Assembly (NCBI GenBank): GCA_937864035.1
Contig: CALMIO010000003.1
Coordinates: 14,673 to 78,672, forward strand
Direction of reading: 5' to 3'
Length of the DNA: 64,000 nucleotides
Source of the DNA: an uncultured Pseudomonadota bacterium
GTDB taxonomy: Bacteria > Bdellovibrionota_C > UBA2361 > CALMIO01
Positions 13,950 through 30,770 of this stretch are shown piece by piece (position 1 is the stretch's first letter; every line of letters begins with the position of its first letter). Made by a program: the position numbers and the translations under genes. A model generated the notes under the pieces. That model did not search any database. It saw only the letters and a list, made by a program, of their open reading frames with translations, and was not told where the DNA came from.

Positions 13950-14395
13950 TTTCGGCTGGTTGGTTTTGCGGAGTTAATGTCGGGTTTTTTTGTCTAATAA
14001 AGATTTGTAATCGCTTGCGAGTTGGCTTTAGGATGTTTTTTGCAAGCATAGCGTAGCGACGATTTTTCCTAAAAGGTTTGTTCTACTAAAAAAAAGAATT
14101 TTTTTGATGGTTTTTAACTTTGTGTTTTAGCGTTTAGCAACTTGCTATGGATTCTCTTCGGACTTGTTTTTACCAGCAACTATTTTACGGTTATGCGATC
14201 AAAAATTTACTTACTTGTTAAGTAATCTTGTTGCTTAAGAATTTTTAGCGGCGACAAAAAACTACCTTTAAAAAATTTTCTCCGTGTAATTTTACTTGCT
14301 TATCGCTCCTGTTTGAATGTCATCGCTATTATTGCAAAGCCGAATGCTTCTTTATACTCCTCAAAATCTTTTTTTTCTAAATTAAGTTTGTCTAG

Positions 14396-14589
14396 TTAAC
14401 TTAAAAAATTTCTTGTTATCTGGCTTAATTCGATGATTTTTTGGGTTTCGTCGGTGATGTTTACAGATTGACCCAATTTTTCTGTATATTCTTTTAGTAG
14501 CTCTTGCGCTAAATCTGCTGGCGAATGTGGGGTAAATTAGTGTTCGCGTTCGCTTGTTGTGTTGTTTTTGGCTGTTCCTGATCGGGCAT
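14396..14589 (-). pseudogene. Small ORF or frameshifted small gene with a strong Shine-Dalgarno sequence (27-aa ORF followed by a 40-codon continuation in the +1 frame)
   Basis: Minus-strand AAGGAGG sits 8 nt upstream of ATG at 14589. The ORF (MPDQEQPKTTQQANANTNLPHIRQQI) stops at 14509. The +1 frame continues (ADLAQELLKEYTEKLGQSVNITDETQKIIELSQITRNFLS) to a stop at 14396. It lies in an 800-bp gap that is otherwise non-coding. Confidence 0.25.
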
Positions 14590-14755
14590 GAAGAAAACCT
14601 CCTTTAAAATGTTATGTAAATATAAAGCAATTTTGAAAAAGCTTTTTAGATAGTTACCACAAAATATAACAATGTTATAAAAATGTCAAGAGCTTTTGAG
14701 ATTTAGAGTAACTAAAATTTCAGCCAGTTTATAGATAGAGCTGGGCGTCGCGGGA

Positions 14756-15340
14756 TTATTTATTTAAAGGATTAAAGGTTAAAATTATTCCTTCGGGGGT
14801 CGTGTAATTTAAGATCTCAACAAAACGGCTATTGGCAAAAATATGTGAAATGCAGGGCATGCCTCTGAGTAGTTTCCGTTCAATCAGAGCCTCAAGCAAA
14901 AAACCAGCAAGCAAAACCTGATGGCGCTCCGCGCCAACCTCTTTTTCGATAAAAACATCCAGAGAAACTTTATCGTCAACCGATACTTGGTGCTCTTCTG
15001 ATAGCACTTTGACCCCTTTGTGCGAAAGCGGAATAAGTCTAGTGGCGTAGTTGACGGTGTAATTAAAGATCGCTTCTTCACTAAGAGCGATCGCCGCAGA
15101 ATAGTTTTCGCAGTGATTAATTAGGTCGGTTTTAATCTTTTCCATAAGCGGCAAACTGCCGTCAACAACGACCGCTTCGTGTGGTTCGGGAGAGACGTAA
15201 ACACCGCCGATAAATTTTGAAACACCACCGATAATAAACCGCCCCCTGAAAAAACCGAAAGGCGCGTGAGCGGCTGAACGCTTTTCGTAAAACTGCGAGT
15301 TTTTAATACGCGCCAAGGCTTTTGCTATCCCATCATCCAT
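14756..15340 (-). CDS. Hypothetical protein (194 aa), no family recognised
   Basis: Long ORF with coding-like composition, downstream of and co-oriented with the collagen-like gene. I see no recognisable motif. Confidence 0.55.
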   Translation of the reverse strand: MDDGIAKALARIKNSQFYEKRSAAHAPFGFFRGRFIIGGVSKFIGGVYVSPEPHEAVVVDGSLPLMEKIKTDLINHCENYSAAIALSEEAIFNYTVNYATRLIPLSHKGVKVLSEEHQVSVDDKVSLDVFIEKEVGAERHQVLLAGFLLEALIERKLLRGMPCISHIFANSRFVEILNYTTPEGIILTFNPLNK

Positions 15341-15556: not shown

Positions 15557-17071
15557 TTAGTAAGTCATTACTACTGTTGGAATCATGCCGCCACCTCCTC
15601 CCGGTGTAGGATCTCCTCCCCCTGATCCCGGAAGAGTTGCTAATGCTGTTGGTAATGGTGGAGGATCTATAGTTGGCATTGGTGTTTGTGTTCCTCCGCC
15701 ACCACCCGGTGTAGGCGTAGGTGTTCCGCAGTTTTCAGTTGTAAAGCTAGCGAATTGAGCTCCTGCAGGGACACTAAACGTGAATGTTTTTTCTCCTGAA
15801 TGATCTGTTGCTGTTGCAACAGCAACAGGTAATGCCAAGGGTATTGGCGTTCCTGATGTGTTGAAGACAACACCAGCTATGATATTATGTCCTATTACAG
15901 AAACCGTACCTCCTTGTGGTTCTATTATTTGAGTGACCAGCCCGCATGTTGTAGGTTGAGGTGGTGGTGGCGGCGGCGGGCCTCCATTGCAACTGCTTGG
16001 ACATACTCCGGGCGCTCCGGGAGGTCCTTGCGGTCCTGGGGGACCTTGCTCTCCTTGAGGTCCTGGATCGCCTTTATCACCTTTAGGTCCTTGTTGTCCG
16101 GGTGGCCCAGCAGGACCAGCCAGACCCTGTGGTCCCGGAGGACCTTGCTCTCCTTGAGGTCCTGGATCGCCCTGAGGGCCCATAGGTCCCGGATCTCCCT
16201 TATCACCTTTCGGGCCTGCTTGTCCAATTGGACCTTGCAAACCGGGTTCGCCTTGTGGACCTTGTGGCCCAATCTCACCTTGATCACCCTTTGGTCCTTG
16301 TTGTCCGGGTTCTCCTTGTGGTCCGGGTGGCCCAGCAGGACCAGCTTGGCAGTTTGTTGCTGTGCATAAACCCGGATCACCTTGATCCCCTTTAGGACCT
16401 TGTGGTCCGGCTGGTCCTGCAGGACCAGCTTGGCCCTGTGGTCCTTGCGGACCAATGGCTCCCGGTAATCCTTGGGGTCCTGCAGGACCAGGATATCCCC
16501 TTTCTCCTTGCGGTCCTTGTGGTCCTTGCTGACCCGGATCTCCTTTGTCGCCTTTATCACCCTTAGGACCTTGCGGACCCGGTATACCATTTAGATTAAG
16601 TCGTTGAATAACACCTTCTGATATCCAAAAATATCTAACGTTTTGTTCTTGTAAATATTTGATGGCTTCCGCTAAACTTTTCCCTCTTAACCCCCGCAGT
16701 AAATGGTTAAAATATTTTTTTGAGTTGTTTTGAAATTTTTTTACAGCTTCAGATAATCGAACATTGCCTCGGCTTCCAGCTGGGCATTTGCCATTTGCTA
16801 ACATAGGAGTTGCAAAATCCGTCATCAATGCTTTGCGTACATCGTTAGCAAAAACACCTTTAAAGATACCACCTCCAGTTAACACATATCTCAAACCGGC
16901 AACCGCCAAGATACATCTGGCTTCTAATTGGTTTGCTTCGTTGATAGGTAATATTTGAACAGTTTTGTTATCTTCAGCTTTGGCAGCGTGAGTTTGCTGA
17001 AAGCTAATAAAAAGTGTTAATAAAGTACCGCCAAAAGCGATTAACAAATAACGAGTAATTTTGTTTGGCAT
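15557..17071 (-). CDS. Secreted collagen-like (Gly-X-Y repeat) protein
   Basis: N-terminal signal/TM segment ([17 protein letters not shown]) and a ~130-aa N-terminal domain. About 215 aa of [11 protein letters not shown] Gly-X-Y triplets are interrupted once (LCTATNCQA). A Cys/Pro knot ([21 protein letters not shown]) follows, then a ~100-aa C-terminal domain and a P/G/T-rich tail. The DNA contains exact 32-nt (16041-16072 = 16140-16171) and 25-nt (16096-16120 = 16321-16345) direct repeats. Confidence 0.85.
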
Positions 17072-17400
17072 AAACTATAATAATTGAAATTTGCGATCCA
17101 CGAGTTGCTTTTCTAACATTTTTAAATTTCGGCACACTTACGATTTTTCTGTAGGAGAAAATTGATCGCCTAAAACAACGGTTTAGGAGGAAATAATTGC
17201 ACAAAGCTATTTTTTAGTTTTTCATATTTTTTCCTTAACATCTTATGACAAGATAGCTAATTTAATTTCAGCCCAGCGCTTTTCACCAAGCCACTAGCTA
17301 AGCTTGATCCTTTCTTTTATTGACTGAGCCGCCACTAAACTGTTACAACGATACCTTCAGAACTAATTTTTTCTACTGTTAAACTGTTCAACTTTTTTTA

Positions 17401-18165: not shown

Positions 18166-18194
18166 ATTTGCTTTGGAAATTTTTTTGTTTACGG

Positions 18195-18950
18195 ATGAAA
18201 AATTTGTCGCGAAAAAAAGTTGGTATGTTCTATAAGCTAGCTTTCTATCTTTGTTTTTTAGCTGTTTTGCAATCTCTTTTTGCTTGCGGCGGTGGTGGTG
18301 GAGAAGGAGATGGCGATGGTGGTGGCGCGCCGAACGGTGGCGGCGGCAAAGACGCGGCGATTGGCGCGAGGATTCTTCACGGCTCACTGAGCGCCCCTCC
18401 AGTTGAGCTTTATTCCAGTTTAAAATCAGGACCGCTTGGAAAAGGTCTTTTTGGGGGCAATGCTCCGCATTTTGGGTTGGCTTCGGCGCCGCAGGTTTTA
18501 TCTCTAGCTATTACAAGAGATGCGAACGCTGTTTTTGCTTCTCACACGGTTGATCTGTCAGTTCAGCCACGGATATCTTTGTTGATTTTTGGCAATAGCA
18601 AGGTTGGCGGGACGCAAACGGCGGTTTTTGAAAACATCTCCAAAATTGCTGTTCCTCAAGGGAGTGATCAAGCTAGTTTAAGTGGCATTCGGGTGGTGCA
18701 CGCTGCTTTTGGAGCCGCACGAATAACTCTTCAGGTGGCGGGCGCAGAGCAATCGCTTGGCGCCAGTTATGGAGGAGTTTCTGAGTACCTTTTGGTTCCG
18801 AGCGGTGCGACCACCATAACAGCTTTTCGGGCTAGTGATCGTTTCAAAATAGGGGAGAGATTAGTCGAGCTAGCTCCAGCTCGCAACCACACTGTGTTGG
18901 TTGGAGGTGAGGTGGATTTCTTTTCGTTCGTTAAAATGTATCCTGACTAA
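18195..18950 (+). CDS. Lipoprotein with a Gly/Asp-rich linker and a DUF4397-like beta-rich domain
   Basis: Lipobox (LQSLFAC), then CGGGGGEGDGDGGGAPNGGGGKD, then repeated R[IV]xHxx...V motifs (ARILHGSLSAPPVELY; IRVVHAAFGAARITLQV) reminiscent of DUF4397. The track ORF starts earlier (18168); the ATG at 18195 gives a clean signal peptide. Confidence 0.55.
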   Translation: MKNLSRKKVGMFYKLAFYLCFLAVLQSLFACGGGGGEGDGDGGGAPNGGGGKDAAIGARILHGSLSAPPVELYSSLKSGPLGKGLFGGNAPHFGLASAPQVLSLAITRDANAVFASHTVDLSVQPRISLLIFGNSKVGGTQTAVFENISKIAVPQGSDQASLSGIRVVHAAFGAARITLQVAGAEQSLGASYGGVSEYLLVPSGATTITAFRASDRFKIGERLVELAPARNHTVLVGGEVDFFSFVKMYPD

Positions 18951-20621: not shown

Positions 20622-22274
20622 ATGTCAGCTGTACAATCTAGTACTAGTATTAGTAGGAAGATCCCACTGCCGATAGTTTCTTTTGTCGTTAATCAAGAAA
20701 AGGACTCAACTTTCAATTATTGGTTGCACAACGATCCGCCATTATTATCATTATTGAGTGATAGTTTTTTGGCATTTGCCGCTTGCGCACCCAGCTCTGC
20801 TGATCGCAAAGCTCTCTCTAGTTCGCTAATCGAAGATTTCAACCGGATGTTGTCAGCATTGATGGTCGCTTATCGACATTTAGAATTAAACAATAAAGAT
20901 ACTCAAGCTCCTTGTTTTGCCGCCGACATAGAAGCGGATCTACTGGAACACCCTTATTTGGTTCGCGATTTGCCCCGATTTAACAGAGATCTTTTCAAAA
21001 GCTATATTGAGCTTATACGAGAAAAACAGACTCCTCCACTTATAAAACTACTTTTTTTGGCAAGTTTATCTAACTGCGTGGATAAGATGGTTGATGAACA
21101 AGTATTTACAGATCGAAACATAAAAAAGATCTCAATCGCAGAAATTCAGAATGAAAAATCTCTTGCTAAAGCCGAGATGGTGTTGATTGAAGGATATCTT
21201 TTTTTTGTTCATAGTTTGTTTCAAACGAACGAATCGATCCGGGTATCTCGTTTAATGGAAAGAAATTTATTTATGGTTATTGCCGATCATACGATTGATG
21301 AAGATTTGCGTCTTAAAGCGGCTTCGCTTTTAATAGACCAAAACTATGATTTAACTGGCATTATTGATTCCTTATTAGGAGATTATGGCTCTGTTGCCGT
21401 CAATAGGCGAGGCGGCGCGGCGCGTCAACAATTTGCTAATCGCCATTTTGTTTATAAATTATTACTAATCTGCCCTGAAGAAAGGAGAAATTGCTCGGAG
21501 TTAATTACCTTAGAGCGATTAGCCGCCGAGCCCGATTTGTCGATCAAATTCAACATTGCCACTTTAATGCTTATAGATAAAAATGACACCGTTAATGAGT
21601 TGGCTAGATACCTTTATTATTTTGATCAATTTCATGATCAATCATCTAGTTTAGCGGCTTTTTCTAAACCAGATCTTTTCACTAAATATATTTTGTTTGG
21701 AGCAGTTGATAATAAGGAGAAAATCTCTGGCTTCTGGCAGCAAGAGCGTATTGAGTTTTTTGCCGATCAGTTAACACTTGATCAACAGTTTGGGGTCTAT
21801 AATTTTTTGCTGGCGGCGATCAACAATCATATGTCAAGAGGTTATTATTTCCCTTCATACAACGATCTTAAGCAGGAGGATTGGGTAGCACATTTTGAGG
21901 ATGCTATTAATATTATTCTCTCTTTAAATAAAATTAAAAATGAAGATTTATTTTTAGCGGGGTTATTTCGTCTCGCGATTAATACATATAGCTATGGTGT
22001 TTACCAACAATTTGGAAAAATTTCGAATTTTTTTACCGAGCTGGGTCTAAATCGGACTCGTCCTTGGATTAAAAATTATCTATTGCCCTTTGTTATTGAG
22101 CAGTTTAAGGGTGAGTATTCTCAAGCAATTTACAATCCAGAGATTGTTTATAAGGTGTTCATTGAGATTGCCAATACGCTTAATATGCCGGATGATTTGG
22201 TTGGGCCGGTTTATCAAGCGAAGGCTTATTATGATTCTTTGCAGGCAGGTCGAGTCAGATCAAGAAAGTCATAA
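20622..22274 (+). CDS. Hypothetical protein (550 aa), predicted all-alpha, no family recognised
   Basis: Long uninterrupted ORF flanked by AT-rich non-coding DNA (167 bp upstream, 415 bp downstream). No TM helices and no catalytic motifs recognised. Confidence 0.65.
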   Translation: MSAVQSSTSISRKIPLPIVSFVVNQEKDSTFNYWLHNDPPLLSLLSDSFLAFAACAPSSADRKALSSSLIEDFNRMLSALMVAYRHLELNNKDTQAPCFAADIEADLLEHPYLVRDLPRFNRDLFKSYIELIREKQTPPLIKLLFLASLSNCVDKMVDEQVFTDRNIKKISIAEIQNEKSLAKAEMVLIEGYLFFVHSLFQTNESIRVSRLMERNLFMVIADHTIDEDLRLKAASLLIDQNYDLTGIIDSLLGDYGSVAVNRRGGAARQQFANRHFVYKLLLICPEERRNCSELITLERLAAEPDLSIKFNIATLMLIDKNDTVNELARYLYYFDQFHDQSSSLAAFSKPDLFTKYILFGAVDNKEKISGFWQQERIEFFADQLTLDQQFGVYNFLLAAINNHMSRGYYFPSYNDLKQEDWVAHFEDAINIILSLNKIKNEDLFLAGLFRLAINTYSYGVYQQFGKISNFFTELGLNRTRPWIKNYLLPFVIEQFKGEYSQAIYNPEIVYKVFIEIANTLNMPDDLVGPVYQAKAYYDSLQAGRVRSRKS

Positions 22275-26306: not shown

Positions 26307-29300
26307 ATGTCTAATAAAATTAAAACAAATTTTAGAGTTCGCCATAATTTTTCAAAGATACCAGAGTTAGTAGAGATTCCAAATTTAATAGGCATACAGA
26401 AAAAATCATACGACAAATTTTTACAGCTTAACGTTGATCCGGAAAAACGAGCTGATATCGGTTTACAAAAGGTTTTTAAATCGGTATTTCCAATCAAAGA
26501 TTTTAGCAACCGCGCTTCTCTTGAATTTGTTTCTTATACCCTAGGCGCTCCTAAATACGAGATTGATGAGTGTCGCGATCGCGGCATGAGCTGGGCTGCG
26601 CCATTGCGGGTAACGATTCAACTGGTGTTGTGGGACGTTGACGCTGAAAGCGGCAAGAGGAGTTTAAGCGCTCTCAAAGAAGATCTTGTTTACTTTGGCG
26701 AGGTGCCGCTTATGACCGAGCGAGGTACCTTTATTATCAACGGCATTGAGAAGGTGGTTGTCAGCCAATTGCATCGTTCGCCGGGAGTTTTCTTTGGGCA
26801 CGATAAGGGAAAGAGTCATGTTTCTGGTAAACTTCTTTATTCAGCGAGGGTAATTCCTTATCGGGGTTCTTGGATCGATCTTGAGTTTGATATCAAAGAT
26901 ATACTTTTTGCCAGAATAGATAGGCGTCGCAAGATGAACGCTACTATCTTGCTTCGATCGCTTGGCAAATCAATAGATGACATTATTTCTTATTACTATA
27001 AATTTGATCAGATCGCCTTTGGTAAAAGAGGTGTCGTAACAAAGGTCTTTAAACCGGATCAACTTGAAGGTCAAAAGGCTTACTCTGAAGTGAAAGCCGG
27101 AGGGAAGACTTTGGTTAAGGAGGGGGCAAAATTTAATCGTGCTACGATTCGACGAATGCAAGAGGCTGGCATTGAAGAGGTTGAGATTGATCCACAATCA
27201 CTTGCGGGAATGATCAGTTATGACACTATTATTGAAGCTGTCGAGGACATTTTACACCCCAAAAGTGGCTCAAAAATAATTGAAAAAGGAGAGGTTGTCA
27301 TTGGTTGGGAAGAGATCAAGGAGCGGTTGCATGAAGTCGTTAATACGCTTGATGAGGCTAAGGGACGCGCGCTCTGTGAAAAGCTCCGTGTTTTAGTCAG
27401 CGCTGGCCAAGAATTAACATTAGATCGCCTTAACACCAAAGGCGAGGTTGTTGAGCAAGGTAATGTTTCGCAGATTCGAGGGAAAGACATCAGCAGTTTA
27501 AGAGTAATATATTTAGATGAGTATCATATCGGTGATGGACTTCTAAAAACGCTTCTTTCCGACAAGATGGAGCCCGATCTCGGTGATATATACGGCAGGC
27601 TGATTGGCGCGCCGACAAGAGAGAGCTTAATTGAGATGTATCGCCGTATTCGTCCGGGCGATCCGCCAAGACCAGAAACTGCCAGCGCTTCTTTTAAAAA
27701 TCTATTCTTTAAACCAGAGAGGTATGATTTATCTGATATTGGTCGTTATAAGTTAAATTACAAACTTTACACCGCGCTTGGCAAAGAAGCTCCACCCCAA
27801 GATCTTGGGGTTTTAACAGATCGAGATATTATGGAAACCGTTCGTTATCTTTTGGAGTTAAAGAGCGGCAATGATCCTCAACGTTATATTGCGGATGATA
27901 TAGATCATCTTGGCAATCGCCGCGTTCGTGCGGTTGGCGAGTTAGTTGAAAATCAATTTCGCATAGGGCTTGTCAGGATGGAGCGCGCCGTGCGAGAGCG
28001 GCTTGGAATGCATGATGTTGATACTTTAGTGCCGCAAGATTTGATCAACTATAAACCAGTTGCGGCAGTCATTAAGGAGTTTTTCGGCTCATCTCAGCTT
28101 GCTCAATTTATGGATCAGGTTAATCCCTTATCTGAAATTACTCATAAAAGGAGACTGTCTGCTCTTGGTCCGGGGGGGTTGACCCGTGATCACGCGGGCT
28201 TTGAGGTGCGCGACGTTAACACTTCCCACTATGGCAGGATCTGTCCGATTGAAACTCCCGAGGGTCAAAATATCGGTTTGATCTCTTCTCTTTCAACTTA
28301 TGCTAGGGTTAATGAGTTTGGATTTCTTGAGACGCCTTATCGTTTAGTTAGCTCTAATGGGCGAGTGACTGATGATGTTGTTTATATGACTGCTCTCGAA
28401 GAGGAGCAGGAAACGATCGCTCAAGCCACGGTAAAGCTAGATAAAAAAGGAGCCATTTTAGAAACTTCGATACCGTGTCGTCGTAAGGGAGAGTATGTTT
28501 CAGTCCCGCCGGAAAACGTAACTAAGGTTGATGTCAGCCCTAAACAGATTGTCAGCGTTGCGGCCTCTCTTATCCCTTTTCTTGAAAACGATGATGCTAA
28601 TCGTGCTTTGATGGGATCTAATATGCAGCGTCAGGCGGTACCATGTCTTCGCAGTGAGGCTCCTCTTGTTGGAACTGGGATGGAGCAGGTTGTGGCAAAG
28701 GATTCGGGGGCTACTATTTTGGCGAAGCGAGCTGGTAGAGTAGTAAGCGTTGATGCCGAAAGGATTGTGATTAAAGCCGATCGTGTTTCTGATAACCCTC
28801 TCGACACTGGAGTGGATATTTATAATTTAGTCAAATTTCGCCGTAGTAATCAAGGAAGTTGTTTAAATCAAAAGGCTATAGTTCGTACTGGCGAACGGGT
28901 TAAAACAGGGGAGATTATAGCAGATGGTCCTAGCACTGATATGGCGGAACTTGCTCTTGGGCAAAATGTGTTAGTCGCTTTCATGCCGTGGAATGGCTAT
29001 AACTTCGAGGATTCTATTTTGATCAGCGAAAACTTGGTTAAACGAGATGTTTTTACTTCGATCCATATCGAAGAATTTGAGTGCGTCGCTCGCGACACGA
29101 AGCTTGGTAAAGAGGAGATTACCCGTGATATTCCGAATGTTGGCGAAGAGGCTCTTAAGAACTTGGATGAATCCGGCATCGTTCGCATTGGCGCCGAGGT
29201 TAAAAGCGGCGACATTATTATTGGGAAGATTACTCCAAAGAGTGAAACTCAGCTAAGTCCCGAAGAAAAGTTACTGCGAGCAATCTTCGGTGAAAAAGCT

Positions 29301-30770
29301 GGCGAAGTTCGAGATTCGAGCTACCGAGTTCCGCCCGGCATTGAGGGCACTGTTATTGGCGCGCAGGTTTTTTCTCGCAAAGGAGCGGATAAAGATGAAA
29401 GAACTTTGGCGCTTGAAAAGCGAGAGATTGGCAGATTGGAGAATGATTTTAAGGACGAAACAAAAATTATTAGAGAGACATCTTTTAGGGAGATTGTTTC
29501 TCTGCTAGTTGGCAAGCGCACGACCGCTAAGTTGCTCAACGAAAAAAGAGCGCAACTTTTAGCAAAAGATGTTGAGATAACAGAGGAGATTTTAAGCGAT
29601 CTGCCTTTTGAATACTTGCGCGACATACAGGTTGGTGATGATAAAATCAATGAAAATCTTAGCAAAATAGTCGTTCGCACCAGCCAGCTAATTAACGCGA
29701 AACGTGCCGCCCTGAATGAGAAGATTAAGCGGCTTAAAGAGGGGGACGAATTAGCGCCCGGCATTATCAAACTTGTCAGAGTGTTTGTGGCGATGAAAAG
29801 GAAGATCCAAGCTGGCGACAAGCTTGCTGGTAGGCATGGTAATAAAGGGGTGTTGGCGAAGATTTTGCCGCAAGAAGATATGCCATATTTAGATGATGGA
29901 ACGCCGGTTGATGTTGTTTTGAATCCTCTGGGTGTTCCTTCTCGTATGAATATTGGACAACTTCTTGAGACTCATCTGGGATGGGCATCGTATAACATAG
30001 GTAAAAAAATATCTAATTGCTTAAGCCGCATTATTGATCTGAAAACTGGTGTTGAGTGGTCCGATATTAACCCTAGAGATCGTGCCGAGGTGGTAGAAGA
30101 GCTGCGCCAGCTTCTTTCGCAAGTTTTAACCGAGGAGACAAACAGCGATTTACTAACAAAGCTTACCGATGAAGAGATTTTGATGGTTGCCAGCAAGCAT
30201 CTTGGCGGAGTCTTCTTTTCAACTCCGGTTTTTGATGCCGCTAAAGAGGGTGACATTGATCGTTTGTTAGCTCTTACCGGCAATGATCCAAGTGGCAAGG
30301 TTACTTTGTTTGACGGTCGCACTGGCGAACCTTTCAAGGAGGCGGTGACTGTTGGTGTGATGTATATGTTGAAGCTTGATCATTTGGTTGATGATAAAAT
30401 TCATGCCCGTTCGATAGGTCCATATTCGTTGGTCACTCAGCAGCCACTTGGTGGTAAAGCCCAATTTGGTGGACAACGTTTAGGAGAAATGGAAGTTTGG
30501 GCATTGCAAGCTTACGGAGCGGCTTACGCTTTGCAAGAGTTCTTGACTGTTAAATCTGATGACGTAACGGGTCGTACCAGAATGTACGAGTCAATCGTTA
30601 AAGGTGAACACATTCTTGAACCCGGCTTGCCGGAATCGTTTAATGTTATGCGCAAAGAACTTCAATCTCTCTGTCTTGATGTTAATCTGATAGAAGATGG
30701 TGAGGGATTAACCTCGCAACAGGCTATTGATCAACAAACTGGTATAACTTTTGAAGCGTCAACAAATTAA
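26307..30770 (+). CDS. rpoB: DNA-directed RNA polymerase subunit beta
   Basis: 1487 aa with conserved beta-subunit blocks ([25 protein letters not shown]; rifampicin-region [30 protein letters not shown]; NMQRQAVP). It is about 145 aa longer than the E. coli protein because of lineage-specific insertions. Confidence 0.98.

Follow-up and report, generated by a model that had tools for sequence, protein, structure and literature searches.

A putatively secreted collagen-like protein of an uncultured Oligoflexia bacterium with cysteine pairs in the interruption and at the end of its Gly-X-Y rod

What kind of structure does a bacterial gene encode when a long series of Gly-X-Y triplets lies between two unfamiliar domains, and do the exact DNA repeats inside such a gene make its product variable in length? 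These questions were raised by an open reading frame in the 64,000-nucleotide stretch of DNA that we analyzed (the window). The preliminary description had taken its product to be a secreted collagen-like protein and a possible length-variable surface fiber or adhesin. The open reading frame was real and lay on the minus strand; no strand had been given before. The host was named from neighboring proteins that were annotated as 'Oligoflexia bacterium', and it is an uncultured Gram-negative member of the Oligoflexia (Bdellovibrionota), a poorly known lineage. The gene and the parts of its product were as follows.

15557..17071, minus strand: complete coding sequence of the collagen-like protein, 504 aa plus a stop codon (open reading frame call; the identical gene was called on two NCBI MAG contigs)
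16985..17071, minus strand: predicted Sec signal peptide, aa 1-29, before AKAEDN (hydropathy and motif heuristic)
16589..16984, minus strand: N-terminal non-collagenous domain, aa 30-161 (132 aa), with Cys53 and Cys96; apparently an orphan
16364..16588, minus strand: collagen segment 1, aa 162-236, 25 Gly-X-Y triplets including 4 KGD, triple-helical length of about 21 nm
16343..16369, minus strand: interruption LCTATNCQA, aa 235-243, nine residues between two Gly
16001..16342, minus strand: collagen segment 2, aa 244-357, 38 Gly-X-Y triplets including 5 KGD, about 33 nm
15944..16003, minus strand: C-terminal junction, aa 357-376, C-PSS-C-NGG-P7-QPTT-C
15728..15946, minus strand: predicted small beta-rich C-terminal domain, aa 376-448 (73 aa), between Cys376 and Cys448 (AF2 model)
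15560..15727, minus strand: Pro/Gly/Thr-rich tail, aa 449-504, 13 P, 15 G, and 11 T among 56 residues

Over 12.7 kb that included the whole gene, the window showed 0 mismatches to three separate assemblies, namely, ENA ERZ794913 NODE_5 (414 kb), GCA_035324065.1 (751 kb), and GCA_035324815.1 (1048 kb). All three of the assemblies that contained the gene represented the same strain. Because three separate assemblies were identical over this distance, a misassembly of the repeat region is unlikely.

The product matched the Pfam Collagen family PF01391 in four stretches (E = 7.4e-26; 90.1 bits against a cut-off of 27.2). Its runs of 25 and 38 triplets place it in this family, whose members carry Gly-X-Y repeats that score above the gathering threshold. 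The proposed layout of a collagen region between two end domains was thus right in kind and needed correction in its numbers. We counted 63 triplets (25 + 38) where about 70 had been estimated, the 132-aa N-terminal domain sits behind a 29-aa signal peptide, and the folded part of the C-terminal region spans about 73 aa, not about 100 aa, with the P/G/T tail adding 56 aa. Bacterial collagen-like proteins are very common, and the protein is a real, slightly unusual member of this common class.

The N-terminus looked like that of an exported protein. The most hydrophobic window (aa 8-24; mean Kyte-Doolittle value of 1.99) was the sole strongly hydrophobic segment of the protein. It was preceded by Lys4 and Arg7, the residues T-H-A and A lay on either side of the predicted cut, and a lipobox Cys was absent. 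This rule-of-thumb reading of hydropathy, basic residues, and cleavage motif agrees with the earlier suggestion that the protein is secreted. The domain that follows the signal peptide was basic (pI of about 10). An AF2 single-sequence model of this domain was all-helical and weak (pLDDT of 53), and it had no Foldseek match in the PDB below E = 1.

The rod itself was acidic. Pro occupied 32 of the 63 X positions and Gln or Pro occupied 39 of the 63 Y positions, and the nine KGD triplets accounted for every Y-position Lys. The eight Cys residues of the protein fell into four local pairs, two of which adjoined the putative helix. Cys236 and Cys241 lay in the interruption (G-x-C-x4-C), with KGDQGD immediately before it, and Cys357 and Cys361 (C-x3-C) lay exactly at the C-terminal end of the Gly-X-Y rod, with the polyproline spacer after them. 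Both the LCTATNCQA break and the 23-residue Cys/polyproline end of the rod were found as originally described. These features were also uncommon. Among the best 120 of the 6778 collagen-like proteins matched by a full-length search, two Cys within 12 aa of the end of a collagen run occurred in 2 proteins, and a run of at least six Pro occurred in none. In a set of 126 comparison proteins that included those 120 matches, we found no example of G-x-C-x3/4-C after a collagen run or of a run of at least six Pro.

The Cys arrangement can be set beside that of animal collagens. The junction between COL1 and NC1 in FACIT collagens reads G-x-C-x4-C. Collagen IV, collagen III, and FACIT collagens resemble the present protein in having two close Cys per chain, and here one pair was in the interruption and the other was at the C-terminal end of the helix. 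In the animal proteins, Cys placed in this way yield three disulfides between the chains and so clamp the trimer (PMC12107170; PMC4863159). The spacings were C-x4-C and C-x3-C, compared to C-x1-2-C in collagen IV and adjacent Cys in collagen III. There was no sequence homology to animal collagens beyond the Gly-X-Y repeat, and any likeness would be convergent. In collagen IV, two Cys per chain in an interruption suffice for a three-disulfide interchain knot that clamps the trimer (PMC12107170); by this standard, the two close Cys per chain that we found in the interruption and at the helix end make a cystine knot a reasonable inference from Cys spacing. The cystine knots of FACIT collagens and minicollagens form after the helix and then stabilize it (PMC4863159). 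In addition, KGD and KGE triplets act as interchain electrostatic clamps and are enriched around interruptions in collagens from all domains of life (PMC11923368).

Minicollagens consist of a short collagen stretch flanked by polyproline, and the order of elements in the present protein (helix, then polyproline and a C-x3-C-type Cys motif) was similar to that of the cnidarian proteins (PMC4863159). Minicollagens have 12 to 16 triplets, polyproline on both sides, and a six-Cys domain (CX3CX3CX3CX3CC) at each end (PMC4863159), whereas in our protein the triplets number 63, polyproline is limited to a Pro7 run on the C-terminal side, and C-x3-C occurs once. We rejected membership in the minicollagens on the grounds that the six-Cys domain was absent.

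Relatives were found for the collagen part only, and both end domains appear to be orphans, with no detectable relative in any of the collections searched. Separate searches of protein, structure, genome, metagenome, and phage collections bore out the preliminary statement that the N- and C-terminal domains match nothing recognizable. A word-index search of 5.8 billion proteins returned no match to either domain, and a HMMER scan of 1.84 billion representative proteins, in which the N- and C-terminal parts were joined and the collagen was removed, returned no homologue. The lone HMMER match, P0006 (E = 1.3e-6), was a repetitive multi-haem CxxCH-type protein that aligned over a 17-residue stretch only, and it was rejected as a low-complexity match. 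Nothing usable was found among PDB sequences. The end domains had no match in Pfam, NCBIfam, or PHROGs, and the NCBIfam and PHROG matches that were obtained covered the collagen part only. Degenerate peptide patterns of the end domains were absent from GTDB genomes, JGI metagenomes, and IMG/VR; an exact 32-mer search of metagenomes gave no match, as did tblastn of the end domains against 50,697 phage records and local phmmer against the 126 collagen-like proteins. All 6778 matches in the full-length protein search were obtained via collagen only. Within the window, there were no paralogues and no further Gly-X-Y runs. When synteny was followed via the conserved neighbor HerA (best match 59% identical), a collagen gene or either end domain was present at 0 of 80 loci. 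A close relative of the organism is absent from the searched genome set.

For the C-terminal domain, the AF2 single-sequence model had five strands (model residues 22 to 94). It was a weak model, in which pLDDT averaged 57 and was about 70 in the strands, and the edges of its beta domain coincided exactly with Cys376 and Cys448. The best Foldseek match of this weak model in the PDB had an E value of 0.1. Its best match in BFVD (E = 0.02, not significant) was to phage proteins with either a tail function or no known function. We found no C1q or BclA-like match by sequence or, with the same weak model, by fold. The tail contained two TPGGGGG units, ended in MIPTVVMTY, and had a pLDDT of about 40. 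An LPXTG motif, a PEP motif, and matches to sorting-domain models were all missing from the tail, and scans of the whole protein with Pfam, NCBIfam, and motifs recognized no autotransporter signal or other signal for secretion across, or anchoring in, the outer membrane.

How, then, does the protein compare with the known bacterial collagens? The general plan of a signal peptide, a non-collagenous N domain, a Gly-X-Y rod, and a C-terminal region is shared with Scl1 and Scl2 of Streptococcus pyogenes, Lcl of Legionella, and Bcl of Bacillus, as is the abundance of Pro, Gln, and charged KGD triplets in the rod. The kinship with Scl- and Bcl-type proteins that had been suggested was not supported by the searches. 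Scores against the NCBIfam models were far below the cut-offs (SclB, 128.2 bits against 325; SclA, 84.4 bits against 400; Lcl, 83.8 bits against 500), and the best-scoring stretches for SclB and SclA were mainly on the collagen part. Unlike the Scl proteins, the protein has an N-terminal domain unrelated to the Scl V domain and lacks LPXTG; neither an LP.TG motif nor a hydrophobic C-terminal anchor, the sortase features of Scl1 and Scl2, was present in it. The C-terminal domain showed no relationship by sequence to BclA/C1q-like or Lcl domains, and the fold comparison used the weak model. The protein also differs from the Scl, Lcl, and Bcl proteins in its Gram-negative Oligoflexia host and in its helix-adjoining Cys pairs plus polyproline, which were absent in 118 of the 120 closest collagen-like proteins.

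Taking the sequence features together, we consider it fairly probable that the product is exported via Sec by an Oligoflexia bacterium and assembles into a homotrimeric collagen-like fiber with Cys clamps. Three chains would coil around one another to give rod segments of about 21 and 33 nm (about 55 nm in all), joined by a hinge where the nine residues interrupt the triplets. Bacteria usually lack hydroxyproline, and we assumed that it is absent here; the stability of the rod would then come from X-position Pro and from interchain Lys-Asp salt bridges at the nine KGD triplets. In the oxidizing periplasm, C236/C241 and C357/C361 would form interchain disulfide knots that hold the chains in register and prevent fraying, the role of such knots in collagen IV, collagen III, and FACIT collagens. 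Judging by Cys positions and by analogy with these animal proteins, the two pairs probably clamp the trimer, although they could instead make intrachain loops (C-x4-C and C-x3-C). The low GC3 of the gene, given below with the locus, counts against the model in suggesting that the gene is foreign or recently acquired. As in cnidarian minicollagens, the Pro7 run may act as a rigid spacer in the polyproline-II conformation and hold out the small beta domain, putatively closed by a C376-C448 disulfide, as a distal or ligand-binding tip. The basic, predicted helical N-terminal domain would be the best candidate for trimer nucleation or for attachment to the acidic cell envelope. Finally, the exact intragenic repeats would be what remains of a past duplication of about 11 triplets within the gene, not an active length switch.

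A more ambitious version of this model is that the protein is a bacterial collagen that independently evolved metazoan-type clamps. It would have a collagen IV-like knot in the interruption, a collagen III/FACIT-like knot at the C-terminal end, a polyproline spacer, and a new disulfide-closed tip, it would be oxidized by Dsb proteins, and both of its end domains would be new folds or families. We offer this version tentatively, and it may well be wrong.

Surface fibers matter for cell-cell contact in predatory members of the Oligoflexia/Bdellovibrionota. If the Cys pairs do form interchain knots, the protein would be a naturally occurring example of a bacterial triple helix whose register is locked covalently; Cys residues in Scl2 are currently added by engineering, using tags such as GGPCPPC (PMC8968730). 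The part that knots and KGD salt bridges play in collagen folding could then also be studied in a simple setting that lacks both hydroxyproline and Hsp47. The guidance of folding by knots and KGD triplets is an open question for non-animal collagens (PMC11923368). The practical value is modest.

The clamped homotrimer model leaves room for more than one location of the fiber. Instead of a surface adhesin fiber, the protein might be a structural or spacer protein inside the periplasm or envelope, or a released matrix or biofilm protein. The signal peptide, which is accompanied by no recognizable outer-membrane anchor, autotransporter, LPXTG, PEP-CTERM, or lipobox signal, is consistent with such a placement. 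Moreover, peptidoglycan or membranes are possible ligands of the basic N-terminal domain, and the C-terminal nonapeptide, with its alternating hydrophobic residues and Tyr end, may serve as a docking site for a partner in the envelope. At about 55 nm, a stiff rod exceeds the typical width of the periplasm, which argues against a periplasmic position. Furthermore, the known bacterial collagen-like proteins that have been reviewed are surface or exosporium structures (PMC8968730). We regard a periplasmic, envelope-internal, or released protein as unlikely.

The DNA repeats bear on the proposal that the gene is a contingency locus, in which in-frame repeats drive expansion and contraction of the collagen stalk of a surface adhesin, as in BclA or Scl. 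Two exact repeats had been noted in the gene, and both were present and in frame; neither could be extended by one base.

16041-16072 = 16140-16171: 32-nt exact direct repeat, offset of 99 nt (33 aa)
16096-16120 = 16321-16345: 25-nt exact direct repeat, offset of 225 nt (75 aa)

Both offsets are multiples of 9. In 2000 shuffles of synonymous codons that left the protein unchanged, the longest exact repeat had an expected length of 16.9 +/- 2.9 nt; the probability of a repeat of at least 32 nt was 0.001, and that of a repeat of at least 25 nt was 0.02. The 32-nt repeat therefore exceeds what codon bias on a repeated peptide produces, and it records a true internal duplication. At least one such duplication, the in-frame placement of the repeats, and the recurrence of 11-aa and 16-aa peptide modules at differing spacing, as after past in-frame insertions or deletions, are what a contingency adhesin would predict; the 16-aa peptide is duplicated in segment 2, at aa 301 and aa 334. 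However, just two short, dispersed exact pairs were present. TRF detected periods of 9, 18, and 27 nt (2 to 5 copies, 66 to 90% matches) in a periodic region that was 66 to 77% identical, and it detected no perfect or homogenized tandem array in the gene, the hallmark by which contingency genes are recognized. Compared to true tandem arrays, repeats of about 30 nt with a spacing of 100 to 225 nt seldom recombine or slip. Since the repeats are not homogenized and the gene is identical in the three assemblies, which represent one strain, the proposed length variation is unsupported, and a contingency adhesin seems quite improbable.

The least probable reading is that the gene is a captured or remnant phage fiber gene, encoding a tail fiber or decoration protein and not a cellular structure. 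Collagen-like phage tail fibers do combine a collagen-like stalk with a small C-terminal beta domain, many PHROG tail-fiber families matched the protein (best E = 1.4e-42), and the C-terminal domain had its best, though weak, fold matches among phage proteins (E = 0.02 to 0.1), but all of the PHROG matches were on the collagen repeats with small overhangs at most, the end domains were unmatched in the phage records and IMG/VR, and a Sec signal peptide is unexpected on a virion fiber. Thus, neither homology outside the repeats nor a phage neighborhood, the two marks of a phage fiber, was found. The neighbors were housekeeping genes, namely, those for 2-oxoacid dehydrogenase E1/E2/E3, an acyl-CoA ligase, a GDSL lipase, and a HerA-like ATPase, as well as secE-nusG-rplKAJL-rpoBC, and no integrase, tRNA, Rfam element, or phage gene was located near the gene. 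A scan for promoters and terminators yielded no more sites than in shuffled sequence. One feature of the locus does favor a phage source: the GC3 of the gene (0.259) was the lowest of the 46 genes in the window (mean of 0.39; minimum of the others, 0.311), which hints at a foreign or recently acquired gene.

The gene at window positions 15557 to 17071, from an uncultured Oligoflexia bacterium, encodes a collagen-like protein with orphan domains, putative cystine clamps, and a polyproline spacer; the kind itself is well known. The coordinates in the preliminary description corresponded to exactly one ORF, and translation, Pfam, and repeat comparison confirmed that it carried the collagen triplets, the LCTATNCQA break, and the exact DNA repeats. 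The interpretation given there held up in part. The collagen run that had been estimated at about 70 Gly-X-Y triplets was also present, with a translated count of 63. LCTATNCQA separated two Gly-X-Y runs, and a Cys/polyproline junction followed the second. The collagen repeat was the sole Pfam match in the ORF (PF01391, E = 7.4e-26, 90.1 bits; cut-off, 27.2 bits). As a by-product, the periodicity of the sequence also gave rise to long ORFs on the other strand and in a second reading frame.

Features of the collagen-like protein and its gene
15557..17071, minus strand: ORF, 504 aa
aa 1-29: signal peptide, cut before Ala; two basic residues, hydrophobic window, and small-x-small cleavage motif
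aa 30-161: N-terminal domain, basic (pI about 10), two Cys
aa 162-236: Gly-X-Y run 1, 25 triplets, uninterrupted
aa 244-357: Gly-X-Y run 2, 38 triplets, uninterrupted
last 56 residues: tail, Pro/Gly/Thr-rich, predicted disordered, ending in MIPTVVMTY
16041-16072 = 16140-16171: 32-nt exact repeat pair, offset 99 nt, not extendable
16096-16120 = 16321-16345: 25-nt exact repeat pair, offset 225 nt, not extendable

The signal peptide was called by rule of thumb, and aa 8-24 formed the sole strongly hydrophobic window of the protein (mean hydropathy, 1.99). The AF2 model placed helices in the N-terminal domain with low confidence (pLDDT 53). The collagen rod had an acidic pI of 4.4. Pro occupied 32 of its 63 X positions, and Gln and Pro occupied 23 and 16 of the 63 Y positions, respectively. 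Gly-Asp came after all nine Y-position lysines, giving nine KGD triplets. The eight Cys fell into four local pairs (53/96, 236/241, 357/361, and 376/448), and the 376/448 pair exactly bracketed five AF2-predicted beta strands (strand pLDDT about 70, mean 57).

All 6778 matches in a full-length search were confined to the collagen part, which alone has relatives. The remark that the N- and C-terminal domains match nothing recognizable was borne out when these end domains were searched without the collagen part. Specifically, we found no homolog with local phmmer among 126 proteins (including the 120 best of the 6778 matches), in a word-index search, in a HMMER scan of all 1.84 billion representatives, among PDB sequences, in phage records, or in GTDB genomes, JGI metagenomes, and IMG/VR. 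The single HMMER match was a low-complexity match to a multi-heme protein and was rejected. The searches lacked a self-match because the exact 504-aa sequence was absent from the 15-billion-protein collection, though the gene was called on two NCBI MAG contigs. Fold searches with weak models of the end domains yielded nothing significant; the best PDB match had an E of 0.1, and the best viral match (E = 0.02) was to uncharacterized phage, decoration, and tail proteins. Genomes reached via the conserved neighbor HerA were at most 59 % identical, and none carried a collagen gene or either end domain. Within this HerA-linked set, the host lineage has no close sequenced relative.

The protein is a putative counterpart of bacterial collagen-like surface proteins in the way it works, yet it lies outside the named families. 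Its collagen-like character was supported by PF01391, and the suggested kinship with named families was not: the SclB, SclA, and Lcl model scores were far below their cut-offs, and the LPXTG motif, an Scl-type feature, was absent, as was any PEP-CTERM-like or other sorting signal. No C1q or BclA-type domain was detectable via Pfam, PDB sequence, or Foldseek with a weak model. Minicollagen identity was rejected because the six-Cys domains were absent. The protein also does not look like a phage fiber: its PHROG matches fell on the repeats alone, and its context and end domains were not phage-like.

The sequence points to an exported chain with enough Gly-X-Y for a rod some 21 + 33 nm long. Three such chains would wind into a triple helix stabilized by X-position proline and KGD salt bridges. 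KGD/KGE triplets have been described as electrostatic clamps between chains, with enrichment near the interruptions of collagens from all domains of life (PMC11923368), and KGDQGD directly preceded the break in our protein. Two Cys pairs occupied the places of animal-collagen cystine knots, one inside the interruption and one at the C-terminus of the helix. In the case of collagen IV, two Cys per chain in an interruption suffice for a three-disulfide knot, which clamps the helix and nucleates refolding (PMC12107170). FACIT and minicollagen knots arise after helix formation, and polyproline stretches flank the minicollagen helix (PMC4863159). Based on the places of the Cys pairs and these precedents, we propose that disulfides may clamp the helix in the oxidizing periplasm, that the Pro7 run may serve as a spacer, and that a beta tip domain may be closed by a disulfide. 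The basic N-terminal domain would be a nucleation or envelope-binding end.

Cys pairs beside a collagen run were found in two of the 120 best matches (P0108 and P0126), and none of the 120 had six or more consecutive Pro; such pairs are thus uncommon among these bacterial collagen-like proteins. In P0108 and P0126, at least two Cys adjoined a collagen run, with GIACWDSNENSLCEK after a run and YNPCNSNCICPPG before one, and these proteins may be further disulfide-clamped bacterial collagens.

The collagen gene was present on ENA ERZ794913 NODE_5 (414 kb) and on contigs of the NCBI MAGs GCA_035324065.1 (751 kb) and GCA_035324815.1 (1048 kb). Both NCBI loci were identical to the window over ~12,750/12,750 bases, which argues against the collapsed-repeat assembly error raised in the preliminary description and indicates that only one strain was sampled. 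In 2000 permutations of synonymous codons with the protein held fixed, the expected length of the longest exact repeat was 16.9 +/- 2.9 nt (P = 0.001 for at least 32 nt; P = 0.02 for at least 25 nt). The 32-nt repeat, which falls inside a 16-aa peptide present at aa 301 and aa 334, therefore marks a genuine internal duplication. Tandem Repeats Finder reported periods of 9, 18, and 27 nt in the collagen region, with 2-5 copies and mostly 66-77 % matches, and the region as a whole is no homogenized array. Recombination between the exact repeats would remove 33 or 75 residues in frame, and this, together with the duplication, speaks for length variation of the gene. We consider such variation improbable, however, because the exact repeats are both short and scattered within a degenerate array, and because the sampled assemblies, all of one strain, contained no variant allele.

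The context of the gene is ordinary chromosome, and neighboring proteins were annotated as 'Oligoflexia bacterium' MAG proteins. One flank contained 2-oxoacid dehydrogenase E1, E2, and E3 genes and an acyl-CoA ligase gene; the other contained GDSL lipase, DUF4397 lipoprotein, and HerA-like ATPase genes and secE-nusG-rplKAJL-rpoBC. No tRNA or Rfam element was found around the gene. The collagen gene had the lowest GC3 of the 46 window genes, at 0.259 overall and between 0.25 and 0.27 in each of its three parts; the GC3 of the other genes averaged 0.39 (sd 0.036) and was never below 0.311. The low GC3 hints at horizontal acquisition from an AT-richer source; the atypical composition suggests either such acquisition or a special codon bias.

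No Shine-Dalgarno-like sequence preceded the ATG (17072-17100, minus strand), and a TATTAT hexamer, which a consensus promoter scan did not report, was located 6 nt upstream (…TTCAATTATTATAGTTT-ATG). Based on these two observations, the mRNA might have little or no leader.

An 806-nt AT-rich stretch (13950-14755; GC 0.34) between the E3 (lipoamide dehydrogenase) gene and a 194-aa orphan gene contained no ORF of at least 40 aa, tRNA, or Rfam match. The 194-aa gene (14756-15340, minus strand; GC3 normal at 0.44), which lies on the same strand as the collagen gene, 216 nt downstream of it, and a 550-aa gene (20622-22274, plus strand) were singletons in the 15-billion-protein collection and had no Pfam or NCBIfam family. 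The N-terminus of the DUF4397 protein (18168-18950, plus strand) was lipoprotein-like (…LQSLFAC), and the Gly-rich linker behind it (GGGGGEGDGDGGGAPNGGGG) resembled the GGGGG units in the collagen protein's tail. The start codon of the DUF4397 gene was called differently in each of three assemblies. The rpoB-like ORF (26307-30770, plus strand) was long at 1487 aa, relative to about 1340 aa for a typical bacterial rpoB product, and probably carries lineage-specific insertions.
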